Below are positions 1-20,730 of a DNA stretch of 64,000 bases, in pieces. This DNA comes from an uncultured Planctomycetota bacterium (GTDB lineage: Bacteria > Planctomycetota > Planctomycetia > Isosphaerales > Isosphaeraceae), in assembly GCA_963737655.1 (NCBI GenBank), contig CAVTTN010000002.1:5984001-6048000 (forward strand). The letters run 5' to 3'. A model generated the notes under the pieces. It saw only the letters and a program-made list of their open reading frames with translations. It did no database searches and was not told the origin of the DNA. The position numbers and the translations under genes are program-made. Position 1 is the stretch's first letter. Each line of letters starts with the position of its first letter.

Positions 1-91
1 TCGGCCGCCAGCGGCCCCCGATGAGCCGGGCCGACCCCCGATGGCCCAGTCTGTCCATGCCCACCCCTTTGCGGATCGGAGAGAGCCAGCC

Positions 92-639
92 GTGCCCCAC
101 ATCACACTCCCCGAAGGCGTCCCCGGCATCCTCGGGCCGATGACCGCCTATCCCGAGACCGAGCGCCACCTGAACGGCCTGGCCGAGGCCCTCCTGCGCG
201 GGCCGTCCTCGCTGACTCCGGCCGAGCGCGAGACGATCGCGACGTCGGTGTCGCACGGCAACGAGTGCTACTTCTGCACCCAGTCGCACGCCGCCGTCGC
301 CCGCGAGCACCTCGGCGAGCATCGCCACCTCCTGGACCTCGTCCTCGAAGACCGCGCTCGGCCCCGATCGACGAGAAGCTCAAGGCCTTGCTGGAGATCG
401 CCCACAAGGTCCGCCTGGACGCCCGCACCGTCCGCCCGGAGGACGTCGAGCGGGCCCGCGCCGCCGGCGCCGACGACAAGGCGATCCACGACACCGTCCT
501 GATCGCCGCCGCGTTCTGCATGTATAACCGCTACGTCGACGGCCTCGCGACCTGGGCGCCGCGCGACCCCGAGGTCTATCGCAGGATCGGCGTGAACCTG
601 GCGAGCCGGGGCTATCGGGGGCCGGACGCGGATGCCTGA
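92..639 (+). CDS. AhpD/carboxymuconolactone decarboxylase-family peroxidase-related protein (one frameshift near 355)
   Basis: GGAGAG RBS then GTG at 92; ORF 41..502 gives LTPAERETIAxxVSxxNECYFCxxSH (CxxC); continues in ORF 265..639 with DEKLKALL...IHDTVLIAAAFCMYNRYVDGL. Confidence 0.85.
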
Positions 640-2044
640 CTCGACGCGTCCGGAGATTGCCGCCCCCGACCTGATGCCCCGCCGCCTGGGCCTGGCCTCG
701 GCGTCGGCGCTCGTGGTCGGGCAGGTCATCGGCGTGGGGATCTTCCTCACGCCGTCGGACATGGCCCGCTCGCTCGGCTCGCCGTTCTGGCTCCTGGTCG
801 TCTGGGGCTCGATGGGCGTCATGGCGATCTGCGGCGCCCTGTCGTTCGGGGCGCTGGCGGCCCGCCACCCCGAGGATGGCGGCGGCTACGTCTACCTGCG
901 ACGGGCCTTCGGGCCTCGCGTCGCGTTCCTCTACGGCTGGATGTCGCTGCTGGTCACGGACCCCGGCCTCACCGCCATGCTGGCCGCGGGGCTGGCACGC
1001 TACGCGGGATCGCTGGTCCCGCTCGACGCGTTCGGCCTGCGGGCCGTCGCCGTCGGGGCGATCCTGCTCATGGCGGCGGTGAACGTCGCGGGGCTGGCGA
1101 TCGGCTCGGGGGTGCTGCGCGTGCTCTCGGCGCTGAAGCTCGGCCTGCTCGCGCTGATCGTCGTCGGGGGGTTCGGCTCCGGTCGGGGCTCGTGGGCGCA
1201 CTTCGATCCCTTCGTGAGCCGGCCCTCGGGCGCCGGCCCGCTCGTGCCGGCGCTCATCGGCGGGCTGCTCGCCGCGTTCTTCTCGCTCGCGGGGTTCTGG
1301 GACGTCAGCAAGATTGCGGGCGAGATCCGCGACCCGGCCCGCAACGTGCCTCGCGCGATGACGCTCGGCGTCTCGATCGTGACGCTCGTGTACGTCCTCA
1401 TCAGTGCCGTGTTCTGGTACCTCGTCCCGTGGTCCGCGGTCGACCCGGAGCGGGGCTTCGCCGCGCAGGCCGGAGCGATCCTGTTCGGCTCGGCGGTGGA
1501 GCGGGTGTTCGCCGGGGTCGTGATCGTCTCGGTCCTCGGCAGCCTGGCGGCGTACCTGATGGCGGCGCCCCGCGTGTACTACGCGATGGCCCGCGACGGC
1601 CTGTTCCCGTCGTGGCTCTCGGCGATCAGCCCGAGGCTCGGCACGCCGGCCCGCGCCACGGCGGTCCAGGCGACCCTCGCGTCGATCCTGGCGGCCTCGG
1701 GGTCGTTCGAGCAGATCCTCGCCTACTTCATGGCGGTCACGATCGGGTTCCTCGCTCTGATCGCCGCGACCGTCTTTGTGCTGCCCGCGACGGGCGACGC
1801 GGGGCGGGTGCCGGGGTCTCCGATCACCCCGCTGGGGTTCATCGTCCCGACGACGCTGGTAGTCGTTCTTCAAGTGATGAACGATCCCCTGCGTTCCGGG
1901 GGAGGCCTGGCCATCGTCGCGCTGGGCCTGCCCGCCTACCAGATCGCCATCCATCGCGGCGCCGCGATCGGGGGCCCGCGAGGGCCCGACGTCGGCCCAG
2001 GCCCGGAAGGCTCCGAATCACAGGCGTCGGCAGGCGCCGAGTGA
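632..2044 (+). CDS. APC-family amino acid permease
   Basis: Multiple TM helices; VIGVGIF, GGGYVYLRRAFG, GEIRDPARNVPRA and PRVYYAMARDGLF motifs; overlaps upstream stop. Confidence 0.9.
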   Translation: MPDSTRPEIAAPDLMPRRLGLASASALVVGQVIGVGIFLTPSDMARSLGSPFWLLVVWGSMGVMAICGALSFGALAARHPEDGGGYVYLRRAFGPRVAFLYGWMSLLVTDPGLTAMLAAGLARYAGSLVPLDAFGLRAVAVGAILLMAAVNVAGLAIGSGVLRVLSALKLGLLALIVVGGFGSGRGSWAHFDPFVSRPSGAGPLVPALIGGLLAAFFSLAGFWDVSKIAGEIRDPARNVPRAMTLGVSIVTLVYVLISAVFWYLVPWSAVDPERGFAAQAGAILFGSAVERVFAGVVIVSVLGSLAAYLMAAPRVYYAMARDGLFPSWLSAISPRLGTPARATAVQATLASILAASGSFEQILAYFMAVTIGFLALIAATVFVLPATGDAGRVPGSPITPLGFIVPTTLVVVLQVMNDPLRSGGGLAIVALGLPAYQIAIHRGAAIGGPRGPDVGPGPEGSESQASAGAE

Positions 2045-2095
2045 ATGTCCGTGTGGCCCGTTTGTTCCCATTCCTCGCAACAGGAGAGACGCATC

Positions 2096-2494
2096 ATGGC
2101 CGAGACGAACGACGCGGTGATCGGCAACCAGGAGTCGATCTTGGGCAACCAGGAGAGGATCCTGGCGAACCAGGCGACCATCGAGCGCAATCAGTCGAAG
2201 CTCGACAAGGTCGTCTCGAATCAGGCGGCGATCCTGGCGAACCAGGAGACCATCCAGCAGAACCAGAAGAAGCTGGACAGGATCGCCGCCAATCAGGCGA
2301 CCATCCTGGCGAATCAGGAGACGATCCAGCACAATCAGGAGAAGCTGGACAAGGCCATCGCCAACCAGGCGAGCATCCAGAGCAACCAGGAGCACATCCT
2401 GGCCAATCAGGAGACCATCGCCGCCAACCAGCGAGAGATCCTCGGCAACCAGCGAGAGATCCTCGCCAATCAGAAGAAGATCCTGACGAAGTGA
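2096..2494 (+). CDS. 132-aa heptad-repeat (IxxNQxx x16) coiled-coil protein of unknown function
   Basis: CAGGAGAG RBS, ATG at 2096; sequence parses into 16 NQ-containing heptads with three LDx insertions. Confidence 0.85.
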   Translation: MAETNDAVIGNQESILGNQERILANQATIERNQSKLDKVVSNQAAILANQETIQQNQKKLDRIAANQATILANQETIQHNQEKLDKAIANQASIQSNQEHILANQETIAANQREILGNQREILANQKKILTK

Positions 2495-2507
2495 CGGGTC
2501 CGCCGTC

Positions 2508-2540
2508 GGCGGCGCCGGCCGGTCTTCGGCCGGCGCCGCC
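2508..2540 (+). terminator. Perfect 14-bp GC stem-loop after the heptad gene (terminator or mRNA stabiliser)
   Basis: GGCGGCGCCGGCCG-gtctt-CGGCCGGCGCCGCC; no U-tract. Confidence 0.65.
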
Positions 2541-2558
2541 CCGGATCGCGGCGCGAGA

Positions 2559-2567
2559 TGGTATGAT
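2559..2567 (+). promoter_or_regulatory. Possible extended -10 promoter for the ABC importer
   Basis: TGgTATGAT about 45 nt upstream of ATG 2611. Confidence 0.3.
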
Positions 2568-2610
2568 CGATCGAAAATGGGATTGCTTCCCACCCACCGG
2601 AGGTCAACGG

Positions 2611-3797
2611 ATGGAAACCCCCCGCCCCGCCCCGCCGAAGCGGTCTCGCATCGGATCAGCGCTCGTCCCGCTCGCCCTCGCGGCCCTCGCGACGGGGTGC
2701 GGCGGCTCGTCGGAGGGCCCGAAGTCGGCCAAGGACGGTAGTCCGACGCCGGTGAAGGTCGCCTATTTGGGCCTCACCTGCGAGGCCGCCATGTTCGTCG
2801 CTCAGGAGAAGGGGTTCTTCAAGGACGAGGGGCTCGACGTCGAGTTCGTGAAGACCGACTGGGACGGACTGCGCGACGGCCTCGGCCTCGGCCGTTTCGA
2901 CGCCAATTACACGCTGATCATGTACCTGTTGAAGCCGATCGAGCAGGGCCTGGACGTGAAGATCACCGGCGGGGTCCATTCGGGATGCCTCCGCGTGCAG
3001 GTCGGCGCGAAGTCGGACATCAAGTCCCCCGAGGACCTCAAGGGGAAGAAGATCGGCATCCCCACGATGGGCAGCCCGCCGTTCCTCTTCGCCAGCCGCG
3101 TGCTCGCCGCGAAGGGGCTCGACCCGCGGAAGGACGTCGCCTGGGTCGTCGTCGCGCCCGAGGTCATGGGCCTGGCGCTGGACAAGGGGCAGGTCGACGC
3201 GGTGGCCGATTCCGAACCGCTGGGCTCGATCCTCACGGCCAAATCGGGAGTCCGCACGATCGCCGACCAGGCCGTCGACGCGCCGTACAGGGACGAATAC
3301 TGCTGCGCGACCGTCGTGAGCGGCAAGTTCGCGTCGAGGGACCCGGCCGGCGCCGCGAAGGTGACGCGGGCCTTGCTGAGGGGCGCCCGGTGGGTCGAGG
3401 AGAACCCGACGGCCGCGGCGAAGCTGGCGGTCGAGAAGAAGTACGTCGCCTCCTCGGCCGAACTCAACGCGCAGGCGATCGGCAAACTGCATTACATGCC
3501 GGGCGTCTCGCGCTGCCGAGAGAGCATCGGGCTGGCCGCGAAGGAGATGAAGGCGGCCGGGCTGCTCAACCCCTCGACGGATCCGGCCGAGCTTGCCAAG
3601 CGGGCCTGGATCGACCTGGAAGGCGTCGATGATGACTGGATCAAGGGCCTCCAGGTCGAAAAGGTCGCCGGGGGAGGCCGACCGGTCGAGATGGATCGCG
3701 TGGCGTTGGCCGCGCTCCTGCGCGCGAGAAGGACTCCCATTTCATGTGCTGCGCCGGCTGCGGCGCGGCGAAGGACGGCGAGCTGTGCGGACGATAG
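2611..3797 (+). CDS. NitT/TauT (SsuA-like) ABC substrate-binding lipoprotein with Cys-rich motifs (probable frameshift near 3725)
   Basis: GGAGG RBS; lipobox LATGC; AQEKGFFKDEGLDVEFV, DLKGKKIG and GQVDA motifs; alternative frame ends HFMCCAGCGAAKDGELCGR-TAG at 3797. Confidence 0.85.
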
Positions 3798-4812
3798 GCA
3801 CGACGAACCTCCGCGACGAGGGGCCGGCGGCCTTGCCCCTCGCCGCGGGCCCGGGGGGCGGGACGCGCCCGGCCGCCTGGGCGGTCCGCCTCGCGCCGAC
3901 CGCGGCGGCGGTCTCGGCGCTGGCGGCCCATCGGCTCCTCCCGGACGGGCAATCCTCGCCGCCGTCGCAACTCTATCCGGGCCTGCTCGTCGTCCTCCTG
4001 GTCGCGGGCCTGGGGTTCGCGGCCTTGCCGGGCGCTCGCGGACGCCTCGCCTCGTGGCTGCGACATCGAAGCCCGCTGTTCGCCGGCATCATCGTTTGGC
4101 TCGCGACCTGGGACCTCATGACCCTCAAGCTGGCCTGGTTGCCCCTGCCGTACTTCCCCGACCCCGACCGAGTGCTGATGGCGATGTGGGAGGACCGCGG
4201 CGACCTGGCGTGGAGCGCGTTCCACTCGCTGAAGCTGCTGTTCTCGGGCTATGCGTGCGGCGTGGCGGCGGGGCTGGTGTGCGGCGTCCTGATCGGGTGG
4301 TTCCGGCCGATCCGGTACTGGGGGATGCCGCTGTTGAAGTTCGTCGGTCCGATCCCGGCCACGGCGTATGTGCCGCTGATGATGGCGCTCTTCCCGAGCG
4401 GGTTCCTCTCCGGCTCGGCCCTGATCGCAGTGGCGGTGTGGTTCCCGGTGACGATGCTCACGACCTCGGGCATGGCGAACGTGCCGGTGTCGTACCTGGA
4501 CGTCGCGCGGACCCTGGGCGCGGGCGCGGCTACCTGATCTTCCGCGTCGCCTTGCCGTCGGCGTTGCCGAGCATCTTCCTCGGCCTCTTCATGGGCCTCG
4601 GCTCGGCGTTCCTGACGCTCATCGTGGCCGAGACGATGGGCGTGCCGGCCGGGCTGGGGTGGTATCTCAAGTGGAAGCAGGGCTATCTCGAATATGCCCA
4701 CGTCTACGGGGCGCTGATCGTCATGGCGGCCTTCTTCTCGGGCCTCATGACGCTCCTCTTCGGGGCCCGCGACCGGGTCCTCGGCTGGCAGAAGGGCGTG
4801 ATCCGGTGGTAA
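3785..4812 (+). CDS. NitT/TauT ABC permease (frameshift near 4525)
   Basis: LPYFPDP, GPIPATAYVP and LDVARTLGA, then YLIFRVALPSALPSIFLGL...LIVAETMGVPAGLGW in the next frame. Confidence 0.85.
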
Positions 4813-5638
4813 GCGCGATCGACCTCGACTCGTCGAGCCTGCACGTCCGAGAGGTCTCCCGATCCTTCCGCGCGGAGGACGGCTCGACGGTCCTGGCGCT
4901 CGACCGCCTGTCGCTCTCGGTCGCCCCGGGCGAGATGGTGGCCCTCGTGGGCCCGAGCGGGTGCGGCAAGTCCACCCTCCTGCGGCTGATCGCCGGCCTG
5001 GATCGGCCCTCGTCGGGCGAGCTGCGGATCGGCTCGGAGCCGATCGCCGGCCCGAGCGCCGAGCGCGGGCTGATGTTCCAGGACCCGACGCTCTTCCCCT
5101 GGGCGACGGTCCGGCGTAACGTGGAGGCGGGCCTCGTCGCGCGGGGCGTCCTGCGCCAGGGTCGCGGCGAGGTCGAGGAGTATCTCAGGCTCGTCGGCCT
5201 GGACGCCTTCGCCGACGCCTATCCGCACCAGCTCTCCGGCGGCATGGCGCAGAGGGCGGCCCTGGCCCGGGCGCTCATCAACCACCCGAAGGTCCTGCTG
5301 CTGGACGAGCCCTCGGCGCCCTCGATCAATTTACCCGGATGCGGATGCAGGACGAGGTGATCCGGCTCTGGCAGGCGCGGAAGACGACGATGGTGCTGGT
5401 CACGCACGACATCGACGAGGCGCTCTACATGAGCGACCGCATCGTGATGATGACCCCGCGGCCGGGGCGGATCGACCGGGTCCTCGACGTCCCGCTCGAA
5501 CGGCCGAGGCATCGCAACGACCCCCGGTTCCTCCGCCTCCGCGCCCAGATCCTCGACGACCTCCACTTCTCCGGCGGAAGAGCCGCGGCCCCCATCGACG
5601 CCGGGGCCCACGCCCCGGACGCGGGCGGTGCGTCATGA
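4806..5638 (+). CDS. NitT/TauT ABC ATP-binding protein (frameshift near 5312)
   Basis: Walker A GPSGCGKST, LSGGMAQR, LLLDEP, VTHDIDEA, PRPGRI. Confidence 0.9.
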
Positions 5639-8600
5639 CCCGGGCCCGACGGATGCTGTTCCTCGTCGTCGGGCTGCCCCTGGCGATCCTCGCCGTCGGC
5701 GGGACGGCCCTCCTGATCTGGTGGGCGACTCGTTCGAGGCTGCCCGCTCCGGGCTCGCCACGTTACGAGGAGATGGTCTCGGCCTTCTCCTCGGGCGTCG
5801 CGGCCCTCGACTCGGACGCGAACCCGATCGCTCGCGACGCGCTGGACCGGGCCGTCGGGATCGTGCCCGAGGAGCCGGCGGCCTGGGCGAACCTGGGCCT
5901 GGCGCTGCTCCGCCTCAACGACCTCGAAGCGTCCGCGAAGGCGATGGAAGAGGCCCGCAAGCTCGCCCCCGACAGCGGAGCCGTCGAGCACCTTTCGGCA
6001 CTCCTCGAGGAGCGCCGCGGCGACTTCGACAGGGTCGTGACGCACCTGAAACGGGCGATCGATCTGGACCCGAAAGCCCTCCGGTCCCGCTACGCTCTCG
6101 TCAAGGAATACGAGCGCCAGGGGCAGGCCGAGGCCGAGGCCCTCCGGCTGCTGGCGGAGATCGTGGAGCTGGCCCCGAGCAACCTCGCCGCGCAGATCGA
6201 CCGGGCCCGCCTGGCGGCCAAGTCGGGCGACGCCGAGTCGCTCCGGGCGGCGATCCGGGGCCTGAGCGGCCAGTCGGCCTCCTGGCCCGAGAGGGCCCGC
6301 GAGCAGTTCGCGTCCGTGGAGAAGGCCATCGCCGAGAAGAACCCGAGGCTCGCCACGTCACGCGTGCTGGGCCTCCGCAACCTGCTCGTGACCGTCCCCG
6401 CCTTCCGCCAGGGGAGCGACGCCCTGGAACTCCCGGCCGGCACCGTGGGCGCGCCGATCCCCCGGTTCCTGCGCATGCCGAACCCCTCTCCAACTCCCGC
6501 GCCGCCGGATCGGTCGGTCGCGTTCGCCTTCAGTCCCCCGGGCAAGGACGCGGCGAGGAGGGCGGACGCCGTCTTCCTGCTCATCGACCCCAAGGATGGT
6601 GCGGTGACGCTCCTCGAAGCCGACGGCCGCGAGCTTCGCAGGGCCGGCGGCTCGGGCACCATCGCCCCGTTCCCCGGCGGGGGGGACGCGAAACCGCCGA
6701 CGCCCCACGGCGTCGCCGTGGCCGACTGGAATTCGGACTATCGGCCCGACCTCGTCCTCGCCGGCGCCGGGGGTGTCCGGTTCCTGAAGCAGGAGGAGGA
6801 CGGCTCGTTCACCGACGTGACCGCCGCCACGAAGCTGGGGCCGGAGATCCTCGGGACGAACGCCTCGGGCATCTGGGCCGCGGACATCGAGATGGACGGC
6901 GATCTCGACTTCGTGGTCGGCGTGCGTGACGGGGCGACGCGGGTACTCGTCAATCGGGGCGACGGCACCTTCGCGTCGGACGAGTCCCGATTCAAACAGT
7001 GCAAGGATATGCACAATTTCGCGTGGTCCGACCTGGACGGAGACGGCGACCCCGACGCGGCGATGGTCGAGGGGACCGGCCCCGCCGGCTTCTCGAAGCT
7101 GCGCGTGTTCATGAACGAGCGGGCCGGCCGGTTCGTGGAAAGGGAAGTGCCCCAGGAGATCGAAGGCGTCCGAGACCTCGCCGTGGGCGACGCGGACGGC
7201 GACGGCCTGATGGACCTGCTCCTCCTGACGTGGTCCACGGTCCTGCGACTCTCCGATCGCGAGGGCGGCCGATCCTGGGATTTCGCGGAGCTGTTCCGGA
7301 GGCCGGGCCCGAAGGACGGCGGCGGGGATCGCCTCCTGGTCGCGGATCTGGACAACAATGGCGCGATCGATCTGATCCTCTCGTCACGAGAACTCGCCAC
7401 GGAGGCTCTGGCTCGGCGGGCGGCCGGGCGATCCCTGGGTCCGCGCGGCCGGTGCGATGGAGTCGCTGGCGCCGTTCCAGGTCTTCGGGATCGCCGACGC
7501 GAACCGCGACGGACGTCTCGACGTCGCGGGGACCGTGAGCAACGGCGTCGCGGGCCCGACGGTCTCCCTCGGCACCAACAGCGGGAAGGCGTCGTATGGC
7601 TGGCTCGACGTCCGCCCCCGCGCCGCGAAGAGCGTGGGGGACGGCCGCATCAACTCCTTCGGCCTCGGCGGCGAGATCCAGGTCCGCGCGGGCCTGCTCG
7701 TCCAGAAGCAGGTGATCGCCGGCCCGGTGGTCCACTTCGGCCTCGGCACCCACAACGGGGCCGACGTCGCCCGCGTGGTCTGGCCGAACGGCACGGCGCA
7801 GGCCGAGTTCAACACGAAAGCGAATGTCGCGATCGCCGCCGAGCAGAGGCTCAAGGGCTCGTGCCCCTTCATCTATGCCTTCGACGGGTCGGAGATCCGC
7901 TTCGTCACCGATTTCCTCTGGCGCTCGCCCCTGGGGCTGCGGATCAACGCGCAGGACACGGCGGGAGTCGGCCAGACGGAGGACTGGATCAAGATCCGAG
8001 GCGACCAGCTCGCCCCGCGCGAGGGGAATTACGACCTCCGCATGACCGCCGAGCTGTGGGAGACCCATTTCTGGGACCACGTCTCGCTGATGGTCGTCGA
8101 TCACCCCAGTGGCACCGAAGTGTTCGTCGACGAGCGGTTCGCCCGCAAGCCGCCGACGCTGAAGGTCCACGCCACGGGGCGCGTCCGCCCGGTGAAGAGC
8201 GCTCGCGACGATCGGGGAGACGACGTCCATGACGTCGTCCGCGCGGGACGGCCGCTATCTCGACACCTTCGGCCGGGGCTTCTATCAGGGCGTCACGCGT
8301 GATCACTGGGTCGAGGTCGAGATCGGCGAGGACGTGCCGAGGGACCGGAAGCTCGTCCTCGTCGCCGAGGGCTGGATTCACCCGACCGATAGCTCGATCA
8401 ACGTGGCGCTTGGTCAGGGGACTCATGAGCCGCCGAGGGGGCTAAGCCTGGAGGCCCCGACGGCAGACGGCCAATGGGCCGTGGTTCGCGACCACCTGGG
8501 GTTCCCGGCCGGCAAGAACAAGACCGTTCTCATCGACCTGGACGGCGTGTTCCGGTCCGATGCCCCGCGCAAGCTCCGCCTGAGGACGAATCTGGAGGTC

Positions 8601-9164
8601 TATTGGGACGCACTCTCGGTCGCGACGGCCGAGGACGGGGCACCCCTCAAGATCCGCCGCATAGCCCCGGCGACGGCCGACCTGCGCCATCGCGGCTATT
8701 CGCGGATGACGCAGGCGGATGCCGGCTCGCCGGAAACCCCTCGCTACGATATCCTGGACGGGGGGCGCCAGCGCTGGAATGACCTGATCGGGTTCTACAC
8801 CCGGTTCGGCGACGTCCGCGAGCTTCTGGAGCGGGTCGACGACCGCTACGTGATCGCCAACGCCGGGGACGAGGTCCGGCTCCTCTTCCCCGCCGCGGAC
8901 CCTCCGCCGCCGGGATGGACGCGCGACTTCGTCCTGATCGGCGACGGCTGGAACAAGGATGGCGACTACAATACGGCGTTCTCGAAGACCGTCCTGCCCC
9001 TGCCGTCCCACGCGCGACCGAATTACGACACGCCTCCGGGCGAGCTGGAAGACGACCCCGTCTATCGGGACCATCCGGACGACTGGCAGCAGTATCACAC
9101 CCGTTACGTCACACCGCACGTCTTCCGCGACGGGCTGAAGCCCCGGGCGGTCGCGAAACCATAG
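5635..9164 (+). CDS. Membrane-anchored TPR + FG-GAP + ASPIC/UnbV (CRTAC1-like) protein with C-terminal extension (frameshifts near 7400 and 8230)
   Basis: N-terminal TM; TPR (AAWANLGLALLRL); repeated DxDxDGxxD loops; HFGLG...VVWPNG; KGSCPF motif; joins ORFs 5635, 7457 and 8229. Confidence 0.8.
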
Positions 9165-9184
9165 CAGGATCGGAGTCGGAACGC

Positions 9185-10984
9185 ATGCTCGGGGCCAAGG
9201 CCGGACGGATCGCCGCGATCCTCCTGTTCGTCGGGCTGATCGGCGCGACCCTGGTGCTGAATCGCTCGTCGCCGTCGTCGGGGGGGGCGAAGCCGTCCCC
9301 CTCGGGGTCGAAGTCCGAAGGGCCCTCGCGCTACGGCTTCCGCCTGGAAGAGGTGTCGAAGGCGTCGGGGATCGACTTCGTCCACAAGGCCCCCACGCTC
9401 GACGCCAAGCTCGCGCACATCATGCCGCAGATCGCCTCGATGGGCGCGGGGGTCTCGGCGGTCGACTTCGACCGCGACGGCTGGCAGGACCTCTACGTCA
9501 CCAACAGCGGCGAGGGGAGCTTCAACCGGCTCTATCGCAACAGGAAGGACGGCACGTTCGAGGACGTCGCCGGCCCCCTCGGCGTGGCCGACGTCAACAA
9601 GGAGGGGACCGGCGTCTCGATGGGCTCGGTCTGGGGCGACTACGACAACGACGGCTATGAAGACCTGTTCCTCTACAAGTGGGGCCGCCCCGAACTCTTC
9701 CACAACGACGGCGGCAAGGCGTTCACCCGCCAGACCGAATCCGCCGGCCTCCCCGCGTGGGTCAACGCCGGGTGCGCGACGTGGCTCGACTTCGACCGCG
9801 ACGGCCGGCTCGACCTCTTCCTCGGCGGCTACTGGGCCGACGACCTCGACCTCTGGCACCTCAAGACGACGAAGATGATGCCGGAGAGCTTCGAGTATGC
9901 GAAGAACGGCGGGCGCAAATACCTCTTCCGCAACGTCGGCGACGGCCGATTCGAGGACGCGGCCAAAACGACCGGCCTGGAGAGCCGCGCTGGGCGCTGT
10001 GCGCGGCGGCGGCCGATCTGCGAGGGACCGGCTTCCCCGACCTGGTCGTCGCCAACGACTACGGCGTCTCGGAACTCTTCGCGAATGAGGGCGGGAAGCG
10101 ATTCCGCGAGATCGGCAACGCGACGGGGGTCGGCTTCGCGCCCAAGAGCGGCATGAACGTCAGCTTCGGCGACATCTTCAACCAGGGCCGGTTCTCGATC
10201 TACGTGACGAACATCTCCGAGGAGGGCGTCCTGATCCAGGGGAACAACCTCTGGGTCCCTCGCGAGGGGACGAAGGGGGACGGCCTCAAGTACGACAACC
10301 TGGCGCGCGAGACGGGCGTCGAGCTCGGCGGCTGGAGCTTCGGCGCCCAGTTCGGCGACCTGAACAACGACGGCACGCAGGATCTCGTGCTCACCAATGG
10401 TTATATCTCGGATGCGAAGGATGCCAGCTACTGGTATGACTACTCGGTGATCGCCGGCGGTCACAGCTCGATCATCTCCGACGCCAAGAACTGGCCGGCG
10501 ATGGGGGACAAGAGCCTCTCGGGCTACCAGGCGAAGCGCGTCTGGATGAACGACGGCGCGGGGCATTTCGCCGACGTGGCGCAGGCCGTCGGCTACACCG
10601 ACCGGCACGACGGCCGGGCCGTGATCCTCGTTGACCTCTGGAACCGCGGCGCGCTCGACCTCGTCGTCGCCAACCAGAAGGGGCCGCTGCTCGTCTACAG
10701 GAACACGGTCGATCCCGCGAACAAGTGGATCGGCTTCGACCTCCGCGGCAAGGCGTCCAACCGCAGCGCCATCGGGGCCGAGGTCCGTCTGTTCTGGGAC
10801 GGGCAGGAGCAGCTGCAGCAGGTCACGGGCGGCGCGGGTACTCGGCGCAGAATCCCCGCCCGCTGCACTTCGGCCTGGGCAAGTCGCCGAAGATGGAGAA
10901 GGCCGTCATCCGCTGGCCGTCCGGCAAGGAACAGGTCATCCCGACGCCCGAATCCGGGCGCGTTCATACGGTGGAGGAGCCCTG

Positions 10985-10985
<1 letters not shown>
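9185..10985 (+). CDS. CRTAC1/ASPIC-UnbV FG-GAP repeat protein (frameshifts near 9985 and 10835)
   Basis: N-terminal hydrophobic anchor; DFDRDGWQDLYVTN and DYDNDGYEDLF repeats; SNRSAIGAEV and GYSAQNPRPLHFGLG...IRWPSG. Confidence 0.85.
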
Positions 10986-11875
<890 letters not shown>

Positions 11876-11924
11876 TCGACGCGGATTCATCGCTCCTTCC
11901 TTCCTTTCGGACGAGGCCGGACTC

Positions 11925-13295
11925 ATGTTGCAGGGCGTGGAGAGGCTGGACGACCTGATCGGGCCGCGGGCGTCGGGGCTCACCGGCGCGACCCTGGACG
12001 AGGTCGCATCGGCCGTGCATCGGGCCGACGTCGATCGGCTCGCGGCGACCGGCGGGCACTTCGCCGCCGTGGCGCACGAGGGGCACACCGTCCGCCTGGC
12101 GAGGACGATGGGGGTGCCCCTGCGCTACTTCGTCGCCAAGCGCCATCACGGCCCCTATCTCGTCGTCTCGGACCGCATCGATCGCCTCTATGAGTATTGC
12201 TGCTCGCTCAAGATCGGCTGGCAGTTCGACCCTCTCTACACGCGGATGATCCCGGCGCACTACCTCGTGGAGGTCGATCAGGTCGGATGCCCCGACCCGA
12301 ATCCCCGGTATCGCCGCTTCTTCTCGCCCGAGGTGGCGCAAGGGCCTCGCGACCTCGACGCGCTCGGCGCCGCCTACGTGCGTGCTGCCTACGAGACGGC
12401 CCGCGACTGGATCGCGCGGGTGCCGGATGGTGAGCCGATCGCCGTGCTCTTCTCGGGAGGCGTGGACAGCGGCTCGGTCTTCCTGCTGGCCCGGAAGGCG
12501 CTCGCCGAACTCGGCCGCGACCCGAACCTGTTGCGGGCCTACTCGCTCGACCTCGGCGGCGGCGAAGACGCGGCCCAGGCCGAGCGCTGGGTGCGCGAGC
12601 TCGGCCTCGAATCGCAGTGGGAGCGGATCGCTCCGGAAGGCGCGAAGCCCGATTACGAGGAGGCGATCGCGACGATCGAGGACTATCACCCGCTCGACGT
12701 CGAATGCGCCGCGGCGTCGCTCCTGCTGCTGAGGGCGATCCGAGAGCGGCATCCCTCGGTGCGTCACCTGCTCGACGGCGACGGCGGAGACGAGAACCTC
12801 AAGTCGTACCCGCTGGAGGATTCGGACCTGACGATCTCCAGCATCCTCCGCAACCCGATGCTCTATCAGGAGGGCTGGGGCATCGACGCGGTCAAGCACA
12901 GCCTGACCTACTCGGGCGGGCTGTCACGCTCCTATATCCGAACATATGCCCCGGCGGAGCGGCTCGGCTTCTCCGCGTTCAGCCCTTATACGACGCGCGC
13001 CGCCATGGCCGGCGCCGTGGCGATCCCGTTCGAGGACCTGCTCGCGGGGGACGCCGGGCGGCTCGCGACGCTCAAGGCCGACGTCGTCCGCGCGGGCGTC
13101 GAGGCCGTCACGGGCGTCCGCATGCCGGTCTTCGCCAAGCGACGGTTCCAGGACGGCGCCGGCGGCGCCTATCGTCAGTGGCGCGTGAGCAAGGCGTGGT
13201 GCCGGCAGGTGTTCCTCCGCCAGTGGGAGGAGCGGCTGAAGGTCGCGTGGTCGCCGTTCGCCGAGCGCGTCTCGGGCAACGCGGTGCCGGTCTGA
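11925..13295 (+). CDS. Asparagine-synthetase-like ATP-dependent amide ligase lacking the N-terminal glutaminase Cys
   Basis: PP-loop LFSGGVDS and DGDGGDE; N-terminus MLQGVERL has no Cys at position 2. Confidence 0.8.
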   Translation: MLQGVERLDDLIGPRASGLTGATLDEVASAVHRADVDRLAATGGHFAAVAHEGHTVRLARTMGVPLRYFVAKRHHGPYLVVSDRIDRLYEYCCSLKIGWQFDPLYTRMIPAHYLVEVDQVGCPDPNPRYRRFFSPEVAQGPRDLDALGAAYVRAAYETARDWIARVPDGEPIAVLFSGGVDSGSVFLLARKALAELGRDPNLLRAYSLDLGGGEDAAQAERWVRELGLESQWERIAPEGAKPDYEEAIATIEDYHPLDVECAAASLLLLRAIRERHPSVRHLLDGDGGDENLKSYPLEDSDLTISSILRNPMLYQEGWGIDAVKHSLTYSGGLSRSYIRTYAPAERLGFSAFSPYTTRAAMAGAVAIPFEDLLAGDAGRLATLKADVVRAGVEAVTGVRMPVFAKRRFQDGAGGAYRQWRVSKAWCRQVFLRQWEERLKVAWSPFAERVSGNAVPV

Positions 13296-13312
13296 ATCGG
13301 GGCCAACCCGCC

Positions 13313-14305
13313 ATGACGATCTATCCCGACGACCCCTCCGCCCGGGATCGCTGGATCCTGGAGCGGAGGCCGCCTCGCAACGCGCTCGACCCCCGGCGCC
13401 CCTACGTGGTCCTCGCGGAGGCCGAGCCCGGCCCGGACGGAAGTGCCGTCGACGTCGCGACGGTCTTCCTCACGAATCGCGAATGCCCCTGGCGCTGCCT
13501 GATGTGCGACCTGTGGAAGAACACCCTGGAGGACACGGTCCCCGAAGGGGCGATCGCCGAGCAGGTCCGATTCGCCATCGAGGGCCTGCCGCAGATCGAG
13601 CCGGCGCGTTCGCACCTGAAGCTCTACAACGCCGGCAGCTTCTTCGATCCCCGCGCGATCCCGCCGGCGGAATACGCCGAGGTCGCCCGGCTCGCCGCCC
13701 CGTTCGCCCGCACGATCGTCGAATGCCACCCCGCGCTCGTCGGGCGACGCTGCGTCGAGTTCCGCGACCGGCTCGCGAAGCCTCTGGAGGTCGCCTTGGG
13801 GCTCGAGACGACGCATCCCGAGGTGCTGCCGCGACTCAACAAGCGGATGACGCTCGACCGCTTCCGCGCCGCGGCCGAGTTCCTCAAGGACCACGACATC
13901 GACCTGCGCGTGTTCATCCTGGTCCGACCCCCGTGGCTATCCGAGGCGGAGGGGGTCGAATGGGCGGGGCGATCCCTGGATTTCGCCTTCGACTGCGGCG
14001 CGTCCGTCTGCTCGCTCATCCCGACGAGGGCGGGCAATGGCGCGATGGAGGCCCTCCGAGAGTCCGGCGACTTCGCCCCGCCGTCGCTCGCCTCGCTGGA
14101 GGCGGCCCTGGAATACGGCCTCTCCCTGCGGGCCGGTCGCGTCTTCGCCGACCTGTGGGACATCCAGTCCCTGGCCCTCTGCCCCTCATGCCGAGCCGCC
14201 CGCATCCGCCGGCTGGCCCGCATGAACGCGACGCAGAGCATCCCCGCCCCGATCGCTTGCCCCGATTGCCGGAGCGCCGACGGGTTGCATCGTCCGGATT
14301 CATGA
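13313..14305 (+). CDS. Radical SAM protein, RaSEA/TIGR01210-like
   Basis: TVFLTNRECPWRCLMC (CxxxCxxC), KLYNAGSFFDP, EVALGLET, RLNK; extra C-terminal CxxC pairs (CPSC, CPDC). Confidence 0.8.
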   Translation: MTIYPDDPSARDRWILERRPPRNALDPRRPYVVLAEAEPGPDGSAVDVATVFLTNRECPWRCLMCDLWKNTLEDTVPEGAIAEQVRFAIEGLPQIEPARSHLKLYNAGSFFDPRAIPPAEYAEVARLAAPFARTIVECHPALVGRRCVEFRDRLAKPLEVALGLETTHPEVLPRLNKRMTLDRFRAAAEFLKDHDIDLRVFILVRPPWLSEAEGVEWAGRSLDFAFDCGASVCSLIPTRAGNGAMEALRESGDFAPPSLASLEAALEYGLSLRAGRVFADLWDIQSLALCPSCRAARIRRLARMNATQSIPAPIACPDCRSADGLHRPDS

Positions 14306-14816: not shown

Positions 14817-15830
14817 GTGTCTCCAGCGAGCGAGAGGTTTCCGGACCGCCTCAGCAGCTTCGGGGCGTTCGGCAAGACGACCTGGGTCGCCCCCTCCGGC
14901 ATGTGTGAACCCGCCCCCTGGGGCACCGCAGGGTTCGCCGAGAGACTCCAGGGGGAGACCCCCAACGTCTTGGAATGGAGACGGCCGCTCCGATCCTGGC
15001 TCCTGGCCAGGGGGATCGACGTCCTTGGGGGATCGGAGCCCGTCGTCCCGCTCGACGACCTTGAGGCCCTGGCATCGATCGCCTCCTCGCCCTTGCTCCC
15101 GCACAGCGGCACGAACCCACGTCGGCGACGAACGCCCCCTGGACAGGGTCCGCGCCGCCCTGCATTCCGGGGCCGATCGCCCGGTCTCGCGCCTCAGGTC
15201 GAGGCTCGCCTCGGTGCGGGCCGATTTCAAGGAGGAGTACCCGGCCTTCACCAACGGCGGCAATCGCCTCAAGCTGACGCATTGCCGCGATGCGTGGCGG
15301 AAGTTCGTCCGCGAGGGGGACGCCTGCTTCCGGTCGCTCTTCCCGCCGGAGAAGAATGCCGCCGGCCAGCTCGACCCGGCCCGCGTCGCCCGCGAAATAG
15401 GTCGCCTCCGAGATCGTGCCGTGCTCGCCGCCAGGATCACCGAGCGGGTCCGCGAGGCGCTGCTGAAGGAGATCCGCGGGCGTCGGGGCGTGACCTGCGC
15501 CGTGATCGACGACCTGGACCTCTGCCGCCTGGTCAACCCCGGCGGGGACCCGCCCGACCCCCTGATCGGCTTCTTCGAGGTCGTCCTGGAACAGCAACGG
15601 TGGGACGCGTTGTCCCCGATCTCGACGCAGGACGGCCGCCCGGCGGTCAAGGAGACGTTCGTCGGACGCGCCCAGGAGGCCGACGACCTGAGCCGCCTGT
15701 GGTGGCCGACGGGTTCTCCGAAGCCGGAAGGGCATTCCTGCCGGAGTCCGCCGCCGAGGGCCCCGACCGGCCGTCGAGATGGACGAGGGATCGACCGACC
15801 GGGGACGGGGCCCGGCGACGGCCCGGGCGG
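14817..15830 (+). CDS. Hypothetical protein (probably frameshifted near 15110; boundaries uncertain)
   Basis: Protein-like stretch in ORF 14529 frame then ORF 14614 frame (DFKEEYPAFTNGGNRLKLTHCRDAWRKFVREGD...); no recognised family. Confidence 0.35.
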
Positions 15831-15831
15831 C

Positions 15832-18800
15832 TCAGCGGGGCCGGGCGAAGACCTCGGCCGGCAGCTCGGGGAGCGGCCTGGTCCCGACTTCGAGCTCGCG
15901 ACGGAGGATCTGCCATTCGGCGGCCTCCCAGGGCCCCGGGGGCCGGGGGGCCGACTCGAAGCGGTCGCGCCATCGTCGGGCCGAGGGCGCGTCGCCCATG
16001 GCGCGGGCGGCGATCGCCAGGAAGGCCCAGTCCTGGGGCTGGGCGCCCTCCGGGTCGGCCTGGATGCCCTCCAGGAGCCGGTCCGTCGCCTCGCGGTATC
16101 GGCCGTCGCGGACGAGCAGGGCGCCGACGGTGTTGAGGATGCTGTGGCGGCGGCGGCCCTGGTCGCGGGGCGCGGCCCGCAGGGCCCCCTCGGCCAGGGC
16201 GAGCGGCTCGGCGTCATCGGCCCCCGCGCCCGGGGCCAGGGCGCAGGCGAAGGCGGCTTGGTTGGCGTGCATCGTCCCCTCGTGGCCGCGGGCCCCGGCG
16301 AGGATCCGGGCGCAGGCCTCGCGATAGCCCGGGAGGTCGCCGGCCATCAGGGAGGCGACGGCCCGGCGATAGGTGAAGATCGGGGGCGCCGCGGGCCCCG
16401 GCCCTCGACGATCGCCAGGAGCCGCGAGGCGCGGCCCCACCGCCCGGCCGCGACGAGCCGGTCGGCCTGGCGGCCCACCCCGGCGAGGTCCATCCCGAGG
16501 CCGGCGGCCCGCTCCAGGTCGTCGTCGCGGTCGTCGATCCGCCCGGCCTGGCCGCGGACCTCCGCCCTCTCGGCCAGGGCCCTCCAATCGCCCGGATGGC
16601 CGGCCAGGAGGCGGTCGAGATACCAGGTCGCCGACCCCGGACGGCCCGCCCCCGCGCCTCGGCCGCCCGGGTCCGTTCCCAGTCGCTGAGGGCCTCCGAA
16701 GGCGCGATCCGGGCGGCCCGGTCGAGGGCGGCCTCGGCCTCGTCCCGTCTCCCGTCGCGTTCCAGGGCCGTCGCCCGCCGCGCCTCGACGGCCCAGTCGC
16801 CGGGCCGCAGGGGGGCGAGGCGGTCGAGGTGCCAGAGGGCGGCGAAGGTGAGGCCCTCGGCCTCGGCGGAGTCCAGGGCCAGGGCATGGCGCCGGGCGGC
16901 CCGCTCGGGGGATTCCTCGGGGTCCGGGACGGGCGCGAGCCGGTCCCTCTCGGCCCAGGACGAGGCCGCCATCGGGACGACCGATCCGATCGACGGGTCC
17001 AGGGTCGCCCCGGTGGCCAGGGCCAGGGCGTCGGACGTCTCCTCGGGGCCCGGCTCGGGGCCGGGCTCGGGCAGGGGCCAGGACCGGACGATCAGGCCCT
17101 CGCCGGCCCCGAGGATCGACGCGCCGTCCCGGGAGAAGGCCAGCGCCTGGAGGGGGCCCTCGGCGACCAGGGGAGGGCCGACCGGCGCGAACGTGGCCGC
17201 GTCGTGGAGCCGCCCCCGGCCGTCGTCGCCGAGCAGGGCCAACCATCGGGCCGACGGGTCCGCGACCAGGGCGGCGAGTCCCCGGGCCTCGGGGATCACC
17301 AGCCGGAGCGGCTTGCCGGCCCGCACGTCCCACTCCCAGACCCCCCCGGGGCCCTTCGTCAGGAGCCGGTCTCCGGGCAGGAAGGCCACGGCCCCGGGGT
17401 TCTGGGCCGGGATGGCCAGGGGGACGCCCCGGGGCCGCAGCGGGTCCAGGTCCCAGAGCTGATAGCGCCCGAAGTCGGCGCCTTCGAGCGTCCCCATCGA
17501 CCGGACCAGCAAGGTCCGACCGTCCGGGCTGAATCGCGTCCAGGTCGCGAAGCCCTGGACGTCCGCCGAGTCCCGGAGCCGGCCCGACTTCGCCTCGTAG
17601 AGCCGGATCTGGGAGCGATGCGGGTCGCGAGGCTCGTCCTTCAGAGTGCCGACGGCCAGGGTCGAGTCGTCGGGCGAGAAGGAGACCGACATCCCCCGGG
17701 CCCGAGGGCCAGCGGGGCGCCGGCCATCCGGCCGTCGGAGGCGTCGAGCCGGAAGAGGGCGCCGCCGAAGCCGGTGGCCGCCAGGGCCTTGCCGTCGTGA
17801 GAGAAGCCCATCGACAGGATCCAGTTGGGACGGGGCACGCCCGGGCCTACCGCGCGGCCCCGGGCGTCGTGGAGCCGGAGCTCGGCCGAGACGCTCAGGT
17901 CGTCGCGGGAGGCCGTCGCCCAGGTCGGCCCGCTCGGCCCGGCCGCCAGCAGGACGCCGCCGCCGGGCCACCCCAGGGGGATCGGGGCGCCGATCGGCCG
18001 TCCGTCCGCGGAGACGGCCTGGGCGAAGCCCGCGGCCGGGTCGGTGACCAGGGCCCGGTCCGACCCCGGCGCGAAGACCGCCTGGCCCACTCGGCCCGGC
18101 CTCATCGGCGCCGGGATCGGCCGGTCCGGGAGCCTCCAGAGCCGGAACGACCCCTCGATCAGGACGCCCAAATCGCGGCCGTCGGGGCGGAAGGCCAGGT
18201 CGGTGACCGGGCCGGGCTCGGCCAGGAGCTCGGCCCGGGCCGCGCCGTCCCGGACGTCCCGGAAGATCACCCGGCCGTCGTTGGACCCCGTGGCCAGGGT
18301 GGCCCCGTCGGGGTGGAAGGCCAGGGCCGTGACGAACCCGCCCCCGGTCCGGACCGGGCCCCGGGCGGCCCCTCGGCGGCAGTCGTAGAGGCCGACGTCG
18401 CCCGAGTGGTGGACGATCGCCAGGGTCTCGCCGTCGGGGCCGAGGAGGTGGCTGGCGGGGCGGTTCACGAGCCCGGGCAGGCCGGTCAGGGACGCCTTGA
18501 GTCCGCCCGAGGCGTCCCAGAAGTCGAGGACCCAGTCGGTGGTCGGGTCGTCCGGCCGGAGCCGGCCGGGGGACATCGTGGCGACGCCTCCCCGGCCGTC
18601 GAAGACGGCGAAGGCGGCCCCGGCCGGCATCCCGGGGGCGGCGCCCCGAGGCTCCCCCGAGGCCACGTCCCAGAACCGGGCGCCCCCGGGGCCGATCGTC
18701 AGGGCGACCCGCCCGCCCGGCCCGACGGCCACCGCCTTCACGGCTCCGGCCCGGATCGGGGGCCCCAGGGGCCGGCCCGTCCCCCGGTCCCGGACCACGA

Positions 18801-20730
18801 CCGTCCCGTCGGGCTCGGCCCGGGCCAGGGCCTCCCCGTCGGGCGAGGCCGAGAGGTCCCAACGGTGGAGCGACCCGTCCCGACCGGCGACCGGGGCGCC
18901 GGTGGCCAGGTCGAAGGCCCTCGGGCCGTGTTCGGCGGAGTCGATGGTGATCGTCGAGGGGTCGGGGCCGAACTCGAGGTGCCGGGCGGTCCCCAGGTCG
19001 GGGAGGACCCGGAGGAGCCGGGGGGCGGAGGCGGCCCAGGCGGCCAGGTTCAGCCGGGCCAGGCGTCGCGAGTCCGGGGCCATCTCGGGGGTCTCCAGGC
19101 TCCGGGCCAGCCACAGACGGCCCGCCACCGTCTCCCCGCGGTCGAGGAACCCCAGGGCCCGGTCCAGCGTCAGGTCGGCGGCCGTCCGCCTGGCCTCGCG
19201 GCGGGCCTCGACGGCCTCGGCCGTCCGTCGGGTCGCCTCTCGCCACTTCCAGACCGTCAGGCCGAAGCCGACGAGGATCGCCAGGACCACCGAGGCGGCC
19301 AGGCCCGAGACCGTCGGCTCGCGGCGGACCCAGCGCGCGGCCCTCTCGGCCAGCCCCAACCTCCGGGCCCGGATCGGCTCGCCCGCGAGGTAGAGCCTGA
19401 GGTCCTCGGCCATCTCGCCGGCCGAGGCGTACCGGGCCGAGGGGGCCTTGGCCATCGCCTTCAGGGCGACGGTCTCCAGGTCCCGGGGGACCCGGCGGTC
19501 GATCGACCGGGGCCAGGGCGGCTCCTCGCGGAGGACTTTCTCGATCAGGCGGGCCCGGTTGGGCTCGTCGAACAGGGGGCGCGAGGTCAGCAGCTCGTAC
19601 AGGGTCACGCCCAGGGCGTAGACGTCGCCCCGGACGTCGGACCGGCCGTCGAACCGCTCCGGGGCCATGTAGCGGAGGGTGCCGACGATGTCGCCGGTGC
19701 GGGTCAGGGCCTCGCCGTCGCCGTCGAACGACTTGGCCAGGCCGAAGTCGGCCACCCAGGCGTCTCCCCGGTCGTCGATCAGGACGTTCGAGGGCTTCAC
19801 GTCGCGGTGGAGGATGCCCTGGCGGTGGGCGTAGTCCAGGGCCTGGGCGACCTGGAGGGCTACCCTCGCCGCCTCCCGGAACCGATCCCGGCCGGGATCG
19901 GTTCCGGGAGGCGGCGACGGCTCGGGCCCGGGCGGGGCGGGCGCCGGTCCCTCGGCCGGGAGGCCGGGCCCGGGGGGAGCGGCGAGCGTCGCGTCGGCGT
20001 CGAGCTCCAGGGTCGGAGGGCCGTCGGACGGCCCGGGCCCCGGTCCCGCCGAGACCGTCGCGCCGTCGGTCGGCCTCGGCCCCCAGCCACGGCGGGAGAC
20101 GGCGTCCAGCCCTTCGCCTTCGATGAATTGCATGGCGTAGAAGAGGTAGGGCGCGGCCTCCCCCACGCCGAAGACCGGGACGATGTTCGTGTGGTGCAGG
20201 CGGGCCGCGGCCCGGGCCTCGCGCCGGAACCGCTCGGCCTCCGGGGCGTGCGTCCCGGCCGGGGGGGCGATGACCTTCAGGGCGACCCGTCGGTCCAGGG
20301 CGATCTCCTGGGCCTCGTACACGACCCCCATCCCGCCCCGCCCCACCTCTCGGACGATCCGGAATCCCGGGATCGCCGGCCGGGAGCCCGCCGGGAGGGC
20401 CGGGGCCCGACCGTCCCCGGTGGTGGCGTCGGTCGAGTGCGGGGGCGACGAGGAGGTCCGGGGCGGCCCCATCCGCTTCAGGAGGTCGAGATAGGGCGCC
20501 GGCGGGGCCTGGTCGTCGCGACCGGTCGGGACTCCGGCGTCGGCCAGCCCCTCCAGGCCGGCGCGGCAGGCCCGGCAGCCCGCGACGTGGGCCTCGACGG
20601 CCTCGGCCTCGGCCCCCTCCAGCCGGTCGTCCAGGTATCGGGCCAGGTGGGCCGACGGGTAGCAGCCGGGCGCCGAGGGGTCGGACGGCTCCGGGGCCGG
20701 GCGGTCGGGCCCGCCGTGGGTCGGGGTCAT
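15832..20730 (-). CDS. Ser/Thr kinase with N-terminal zf-HC2 anti-sigma finger, TM, WD40 repeats and TPRs (frameshifts near 17700 and 16650)
   Basis: HVAGCRAC; GRGGMGVVY, HRDVKPSN, DFG, YMAPE; TM LAASVVLAILVGFGL; AFHPDG/AFRPDG repeats; TPR-like C-terminus. Confidence 0.9.

Follow-up and report, generated by a model that had tools for sequence, protein, structure and literature searches.

Described relatives of the cluster

The gene cluster analysed here occupies positions 92 to 14305 of a stretch of 64,000 nucleotides from an uncultured member of the Isosphaeraceae (G000:C2:5984001-6048000; the whole stretch is called the window, G000 is the source genome, and L and G numbers denote loci and genomes), and its closest described relatives belong to several different systems. 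In the ArcS-RaSEA system, RaSEA, complexed with a lysine transferase, turns preQ0-Lys into archaeosine (PMC11298593). Our cluster has in common with it a radical S-adenosylmethionine (SAM) enzyme of the same wider family and an upstream enzyme that could attach an amine, and this parallel suggests a logic in which ligation is followed by cleavage. It differs in the score of the radical SAM enzyme against the NCBIfam model for RaSEA, TIGR01210 (92 bits, cut-off 212.15), in the partner, which is a ligase with the AsnB fold, in the bacterial host, and in having halogenase and envelope genes as neighbours. Beta-lactam synthetase, CarA and the asparagine synthetase-like (AS-like) amide and nitrile synthetases such as PesC and TsrC resemble the ligase in the two-domain fold, the PP-loop, the Glu-Tyr pair and the lysine; beta-lactam synthetase and CarA likewise are not known to have a glutaminase cysteine. 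On the other hand, structural alignments with these enzymes give 13-19% identity, the N-terminal domain of the ligase is shortened and has a GCPDP motif of its own, and there are no clavam, carbapenem or precursor-peptide genes here.

The envelope proteins recall the enediyne polyketide synthase (PKS) cassette UnbL/UnbV/UnbU (presumably the proteins numbered E3, E4 and E5). As in the cassette of C-1027, where the two counterparts lie between DUF1702 and the PKS, UnbV is followed directly by UnbU; the intact UnbV orthologue of locus L014 is 28% identical to the C-1027 protein of the CRTAC1 family (548 aa, E 4e-50) and UnbU is 27% identical to its counterpart (E 1e-14). Gui et al. are said to have described iodinated products of this cassette in 2024. 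Unlike the cassette, positions 92-14305 contain no PKS, thioesterase or DUF1702 gene, none of these recurs in 80 related loci (the best 80 of 330 ligase relatives found in a scan of species genomes, on which our locus counts rest), and a TPR-UnbV protein, which carries an unclassified domain, is present in addition. A DUF1702 gene of the UnbL/E3 type does, however, follow a gene for the NQ protein described below on a 1-kb contig (L118:174-1023). The usual third enzyme beside the ligase and the radical SAM enzyme groups with the phenolic flavin halogenases PltM (E 1e-82) and CtcP (2e-77), whereas in G000 itself the gene was not found by orthologue and profile search. Finally, long runs of hydrophobic-x-x-Asn heptads are known from the coiled coils of autotransporter adhesins with asparagine at position d (N@d; PMC13580157). 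The NQ protein differs from these: it stands alone as a cytoplasmic mini-protein that consists almost entirely of such layers, its Asn residues are followed by Gln, it is linked to an importer, and in one case it is fused to a sigma-54 activator.

When the decisive features of known families were compared, the proteins agreed with the broad ones only, namely the AS-like fold and the N@d pattern and, in relatives, the phenolic halogenase and the AhpD selenoprotein. In the literature covered, which takes in few subscription papers, we found neither a description of the cluster nor a matching characterised pathway. What is new is the joining of two modules, their co-occurrence when unlinked, the halogenase-free form of the Isosphaeraceae and the evidence against NQ as a substrate.

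We refer to the glutaminase-less AsnB-like ligase and the RaSEA-like radical SAM enzyme, usually accompanied by a PltM-type phenol halogenase, as module A. Module B consists of TPR-UnbV, UnbV, UnbU, the ATP-binding cassette (ABC) importer, AhpD and the NQ protein, with an amino-acid permease as a variable member. The two modules are strongly associated yet separable, and each also occurs alone. With a probability of roughly one in three, they serve a pathway of ligation and radical cleavage to a small, usually halogenated amide, which is handled at the envelope and comes with an anion supply. Gene content, gene order, co-occurrence, folds and conserved motifs are the observed basis, from which we infer the steps of the pathway. 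The features are as follows, in window numbering and all on the forward (+) strand:

1..24, +, last codons of the upstream gene (291 aa, start 854 nt left of the window); a loose neighbour, not core
92..639, +, AhpD/CMD-like peroxidase-related protein with CYFC; frameshift near 356
632..2044, +, APC-family amino-acid permease, 470 aa, intact (PF13520, E 1e-51)
2096..2494, +, NQ protein, 132 aa, intact; [I/V]xxNQxx heptads with 10-residue steps, no signal peptide
2611..3797, +, NMT1/SsuA-like lipoprotein substrate-binding protein; frameshift near 3723
3790..4812 (start approximate), +, ABC permease; frameshift near 4521
4806..5638 (start approximate), +, ABC ATPase; frameshift near 5312
5635..9164, +, membrane-anchored TPR + FG-GAP + ASPIC/UnbV protein (TPR-UnbV); frameshifts about 7380-7580 and about 8243
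9185..10985, +, membrane-anchored FG-GAP/UnbV (CRTAC1-like) protein; frameshifts near 9987 and 10836
10985..11875, +, UnbU / RnfD-NqrB-like membrane protein, 296 aa, intact (PF03116 weak)
11925..13295, +, ATP-dependent ligase of the AsnB/beta-lactam-synthetase fold, 456 aa, intact (Asn_synthase, fold model)
13313..14305, +, RaSEA-like radical SAM enzyme, 330 aa, intact (below the TIGR01210 cut-off)

The original prediction, made from the letters alone, had named eleven same-strand genes with overlapping junctions and their families, and all of this was seen again in the sequence, the open reading frames (ORFs) and the Pfam scan (CMD, AA_permease_2, NMT1_2, BPD_transp_1, ABC_tran, TPR+FG-GAP_3+UnbV_ASPIC, FG-GAP_3, NQR2_RnfD, Asn_synthase and Radical_SAM). 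The overlapping stop/start junctions are ATG632/TGA637-639, ATGA 5635-5638 and TGATG 10983-10987. The scan of 16 ORFs also gave no PKS, nonribosomal peptide synthetase (NRPS), YcaO or Lan family, as had been stated. A promoter and terminator scan gave no signal above chance level.

Co-occurrence of the two modules

The prediction had proposed to examine gene neighbourhoods of the ligase and the radical SAM enzyme for conserved synteny. The order binding protein-permease-ATPase-TPR-UnbV-UnbV-UnbU-AsnB-radical SAM is kept in seven further loci (L011, L014, L037, L038, L039, L043 and L045). AhpD and the amino-acid permease, whose co-occurrence was also to be checked, are both seen at some related loci but are variable members.

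The radical SAM enzyme is present in 18/301 Planctomycetota, 18/201 Acidobacteriota and 22/121 Armatimonadota genomes of our phylum samples, that is, at a prevalence of 6-18% (each count takes in its centre genome, and one of the 18 Acidobacteriota positives is an unpublished genome). UnbU was found in 21 of the 22 positive Armatimonadota and in 4 of the 99 negative ones, mostly on other contigs or far from module A, and in 7/18 positive against 5/183 negative Acidobacteriota; related genomes are not independent, and kinship inflates such association statistics (Fisher P values are overstated), which has to be held against a common pathway. In a hand-picked panel of 50 genomes with and 30 without the radical SAM enzyme, UnbU at E<1e-45 occurs in 24/50 and 0/30, respectively. 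In several phyla of bacteria that have been little studied, the modules occur together, in many cases at separate chromosomal sites, and they adjoin each other in three phyla and in at least four different gene orders (the window; L041; L055/L058; L081-L089; L091). Since each module is also seen alone, we conclude from these counts that they are associated but separable.

Potentially, the two modules could be unrelated systems which share a niche and are mere neighbours in Isosphaeraceae and some Acidobacteriota. That each occurs alone would fit this, and common ancestry could produce the overlap in Armatimonadota. The adjacency in several gene orders and phyla, the tight junctions and the co-occurrence of unlinked modules, on the other hand, make such a chance neighbourhood rather unlikely in our view.

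The proteins of the two modules

The closest titled ligase relatives are Planctomycetales/Paludisphaera records (83-85%), and the radical SAM gene lies immediately 3' of the ligase gene in 62 of the 69 loci having at least 600 bases downstream. The ligase begins with MLQGVER, has no N-terminal Cys nucleophile and scores 46.5 bits against TIGR01536, the glutamine-hydrolysing asparagine synthetase B, below the cut-off of 267. Invariant residues are SGGxDS, E289, Y294, K404 and the family-specific GCPDP (alignment numbering). The model (predicted local distance difference test, pLDDT, 85) has ASNS, beta-lactam synthetase, AsnB and CarA as top Foldseek matches, and the two-domain fold, the PP-loop SGGxDS and the conserved Glu, Tyr and Lys are those of an AS-like adenylating ligase. 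E289 and Y294 have the same spacing as the Glu363-Tyr368 dyad kept by AS-like enzymes, which act on peptide C-termini (PMC13060819), with the match made by spacing only. We predict that the ligase is an ATP-dependent, amide-forming AS-like enzyme.

In the radical SAM enzyme, the triad CxxxCxxC (C63, C67 and C70) is invariant in 42 sequences. The sole clear match in the PDB is queuine lyase (6P78, E 7e-7), an enzyme which cleaves a C-N bond. The family, a large one, comprises at least 7,948 proteins when clustered at 90% and 599 clusters at 50% (E<=1e-30), and no close relative of it has been solved. Databases name many of its members 'archaeosine synthase beta-subunit', a label that is contradicted by gene context. 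The nearest radical SAM families act on deazaguanines, which would speak for an archaeosine-like modification of tRNA or a nucleobase in bacteria. However, no ArcS, ArcTGT (TGT) or Que gene recurs in the 80 loci (the genomes as wholes were not searched), and the enzyme is accompanied by a phenol halogenase and by exported proteins, so that we find this explanation hardly credible. With this system one could test in bacteria whether the ArcS-RaSEA logic has been taken over into small-molecule chemistry.

Two further records of the radical SAM family were seen. An 896-aa record (P0247) joins the enzyme to a UnbV-like protein; because it has a signal-like stretch in the middle, it is likely a gene-calling fusion of neighbours, and we set it aside as evidence of linkage. 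On the Streptomyces plasmid pFRL5 (L217:8857-15515), a distant relative (31%) stands beside a P450, a serine hydroxymethyltransferase and a carbamoyltransferase, a different biosynthetic set.

A flavoprotein gene follows within 3 kb in 37 of the 62 module-A loci with room to show it, and orthologues of this halogenase occur in 43/50 positive and 0/30 negative panel genomes. Five of the seven positives without it are every Isosphaeraceae among the positive panel genomes. The relatives' enzyme has the Rossmann GxGxxG, the catalytic Lys and a GWxWxLRF (WxWxIP-like) motif of phenolic flavin halogenases, and its invariant K88 aligns with the Lys of CGIKLG in PltM, which puts Cl, Br and I on phenols (PMC6424973). 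We considered whether the flavoprotein could be a maturase of the QhpG/GoxB kind, and rejected this as the matches are weaker than those to PltM. Substitution of the halogenase by the amino-acid permease was rejected as well, because both coexist in the genome of L170.

In module B, UnbU matches the RnfD structure 8ahx at E 0.003. Its L014 orthologue scores 29 bits against the RnfD/NqrB family, below the cut-off of 207, and there are no further rnf genes in the cluster. In this system the enediyne E4/E5 proteins, which are poorly understood, can be studied without a PKS. TPR-UnbV ends in a conserved domain of about 430 aa which belongs to no known family and falls in an unnamed Atlas cluster of 3,032 members; one Cys (KGSCP) and six Trp residues in it are invariant. 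The domain has no sequence match in the PDB; in the model (pLDDT 68) only a jelly-roll subdomain gave matches, to common binding-type jelly rolls (best Z 8.9). At E<1e-85, a threshold picked after seeing the data, a subfamily of the domain is found in 48/50 positive and 2/30 negative panel genomes and so follows module A more closely than UnbU does; at 1e-20 the counts are 49/50 and 17/30.

This distribution would be expected if module A made or installed a cofactor for a periplasmic redox enzyme formed by TPR-UnbV and the UnbV propeller, with UnbU passing electrons to the membrane, in analogy to quinoprotein amine dehydrogenases. The invariant Cys and Trp residues, a NapH/MauN-like gene in locus L134 and the weak similarity of the flavoprotein to QhpG (PMC7876137) and GoxB point in the same direction. 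We nevertheless consider such a cofactor doubtful: the flavoprotein is much closer to PltM/CtcP and went undetected in five genomes which retain the other genes, the matches of the C-terminal domain are to binding-type jelly rolls with Z<9, and module B is also found without module A.

The binding protein keeps the Cys/His motifs LTCEAA, HxGC and EYCC, and a second binding-protein type has TCxLTCP. Together with weak SaoX matches and the selenocysteine form of AhpD, these conserved motifs could indicate that the product is a metal or metalloid chelator re-imported by the binding protein, the halogenase being merely tailoring. As neither a TonB receptor nor a metal regulator recurs in the 80 loci, and ABC genes are absent from most of them, a chelator appears improbable to us. 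Orthologues of the amino-acid permease adjoin module B in L012, L110, L112 and L170.

An intact AhpD orthologue (L110) scores above the cut-off of TIGR01926. In seven related loci, AhpD has an in-frame TGA at CxxU and a hairpin after it, whereas the window copy is the Cys form. The CxxU genes of L012, L041, L108, L113 and L170 share the DNA hairpin CACGCAGAGTTTCTGCG right after the TGA, a likely selenocysteine insertion element, and AhpD of these relatives is predicted to be a selenoprotein.

Two side observations concern module-B genes elsewhere. In genomes with module B only, a nitrilase/amidase-family gene adjoins TPR-UnbV (L165:18444-19640, L168:5668-6783). Two Isosphaeraceae (L183 in G022, L184 in G334) have separate DUF1702-UnbV-UnbU sets, distinct from the cluster orthologues.

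The NQ protein of the window has 15 [ILVM]xxNQ motifs, compared with a maximum of 5 in 20,000 shuffles, and 16 of its 17 Asn lie on a 7/10 spacing grid. It has no hydrophobic segment and no signal peptide. Members of the family have 43-132 aa, ribosome-binding sites and a conserved end like EILANQKKILxK. With hydrophobic residues at a and Asn at d in consecutive heptads, NQ follows the N@d pattern, and such layers of trimeric coiled coils normally enclose a central anion (PMC13580157). We predict that NQ is a trimeric coiled coil with Asn at d which binds anions; it would be a natural protein almost wholly made of predicted anion-binding layers.

Scanning metagenomes with NQ alone gave 17 loci. 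Of 38 distinct NQ genes, a set that includes loci picked through the ligase, 24 have DUF1702 or a gene of the cluster no more than 3 kb away, and 18 have an ABC gene at such a distance. NQ is present in 16/50 positive and 0/30 negative panel genomes; 15 of those 16 have UnbU, and NQ also occurs in two of five ligase-free UnbU genomes (Acidobacteriota). Since it pairs with UnbU and occurs without the ligase, NQ belongs to module B, and since it is missing from 34 of the 50 module-A genomes, it is an unlikely substrate of the two enzymes. Modification of NQ at Asn/Gln or a C-terminal Lys, in the manner of ribosomally synthesised and post-translationally modified peptides, could still be read from the C-terminal Lys of 29/38 copies and from the action of AS-like enzymes on peptide C-termini (PMC13060819). 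Its presence in two genomes without ligase, the lengths of 43-132 aa, the lack of a leader/core division and the fusion to an activator make us regard this as very unlikely.

The fusion is found in G337 (L144:4123-9890): beside a free-standing NQ gene there is a sigma-54 activator whose N-terminal part is an NQ segment. Some 2 kb past the activator comes the gene for a vanadium haloperoxidase, which has a twin-arginine-like leader and matches 1QHB at E 1e-101, and these genes lie upstream of a selenocysteine AhpD and TPR-UnbV. The strict sigma-54 pattern was not found upstream of 18 NQ genes.

Proposed pathway, state of this copy and flanking genes

In the ligation-cleavage pathway that we favour, the ABC importer would bring in an anion or a precursor, and the NQ trimer may store or sense halide-like anions in its Asn layers. 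In most hosts the PltM-type flavin enzyme would halogenate a free phenol; Isosphaeraceae without it may make the plain compound or halogenate by another route. The ligase would adenylate a carboxylate and, because it has no glutaminase, couple it to an organic amine such as lysine. The radical SAM enzyme would then cleave the C-N bond of the amine so that the nitrogen stays on the product, like RaSEA after ArcS. The two exported UnbV propellers and the membrane protein UnbU may act on the product outside the cytoplasm, by binding or oxidation; AhpD may clear peroxide by-products. This putative chemistry follows the behaviour of the families, that is, AS-like adenylation (PMC13060819), the lysine nitrogen of ArcS-RaSEA (PMC11298593) and PltM (PMC6424973).

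A number of observations weigh against this pathway. Substrate, product and activity are all putative. UnbU is present in 4/18 positive and 20/283 negative Planctomycetota (all 20, together with one of the 4, fall into a group with lower scores; close orthologues count 3 and 0), module A occurs without UnbU in 26 of the 50 positive panel genomes, and five Acidobacteriota have UnbU/module B without ligase and radical SAM enzyme. No gene for an aromatic acid recurs across the 80 loci. Orthologue and profile searches did not find the halogenase in five Isosphaeraceae, among them G000 and a complete Singulisphaera chromosome, so that halogenation is not obligatory. In N@d layers a bound anion can have a structural role only, NMT1/SsuA-type proteins bind many ligands, and the Cys/His sets here would suit a metal. 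The vanadium haloperoxidase was seen at one locus, the similarity to the enediyne E4/E5 proteins is just 27-28%, and their reported link to iodination is tentative. A deiodinase-like gene is present in 12 of 14 family members with or without the cluster, in G335 megabases away. Three things carry the halide theme, namely the halogenase, the N@d protein and the homology to E4/E5; it loses weight because this genome has lost the halogenase and because deiodinase-like genes do not track the cluster.

A more far-reaching version would be a widespread and hitherto undescribed halide-handling pathway of soil and freshwater bacteria. The importer and an NQ 'halide wire' with up to 16 anion layers, a sensor of the sigma-54 activator, would supply halide to a phenol halogenase or to the PKS-free, enediyne-type UnbV/UnbU pair, and the ligase and the RaSEA-like enzyme, with lysine as nitrogen donor, would finish a new halogenated metabolite or cofactor. 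Taken as a whole, we hold this to be improbable; if true, the halogenase-free form of the Isosphaeraceae would isolate the activity of UnbV/UnbU. The original claim of a dedicated biosynthetic or protein-modification pathway holds in so far as synteny is conserved and no characterised match was found, whereas the cluster has become two separable modules and modification of the NQ protein is disfavoured.

Compared with intact orthologues, six genes of the window copy have eight frame changes that the original prediction did not mention, mostly deletions of 1-2 bases within GC-rich runs: AhpD, binding protein, ABC permease, ATPase, TPR-UnbV (2) and UnbV (2). The amino-acid permease, NQ, UnbU, the ligase and the radical SAM enzyme are all intact. 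As a control, 72 unrelated genes gave 6 breaks in 28,777 residues (they come from 182 queries, of which the others had no close orthologue, and short end pieces escape the control). This rate leads us to expect about one break over the approximately 4,850 residues of the cluster, an assumed length, as compared with the eight seen (P about 1e-5). The changes would reflect a consensus of poor quality in this region or, alternatively, envelope genes that have recently begun to decay, and module B may be decaying in this strain. Copies in named relatives (Aquisphaera insulae JC669, Singulisphaera sp. PoT) are intact, which makes the system testable.

The cluster had been suspected to extend to the left. 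The same-strand run does continue there with the gene G000:C2:5983146-5984024 (stop at window 22-24), but this AhpD/deiodinase-like neighbour is a loose one and not core, because its presence does not track the cluster. It has a signal-like N-terminus, an AhpD-like piece and an iodothyronine-deiodinase-like domain (PF00837, E 5.4e-24 at C2:5983512-5983967, one of 3 matches in the genome), and looks internally deleted relative to L012. A deiodinase-like gene is adjacent in the window, L012, L045 and L159. An iodine theme based on this gene was downgraded, as most family members have one regardless. In L159:9310-16252 (G338), a selenocysteine AhpD is followed by NQ, and the opposite strand carries three AhpD genes in tandem as well as a deiodinase-like gene that reads FGSYT-TGA-PPF. 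Further 5' of the upstream gene in G000 lie a small lipoprotein and a fragment which we take to be DUF1559-like.

Right of the cluster (window 14850-20730), a Ser/Thr kinase-like gene with repeats and an adjoining ORF are seemingly frameshifted and not conserved in related loci. On G000:C2, about 4,400-20,000 bases left of the window, there are two convergent cas-like sets adjoining a transposase; by eye, we labelled the genes cas3 (frameshifted), cas5, cas8, cas7, cas4, cas1 and cas2.

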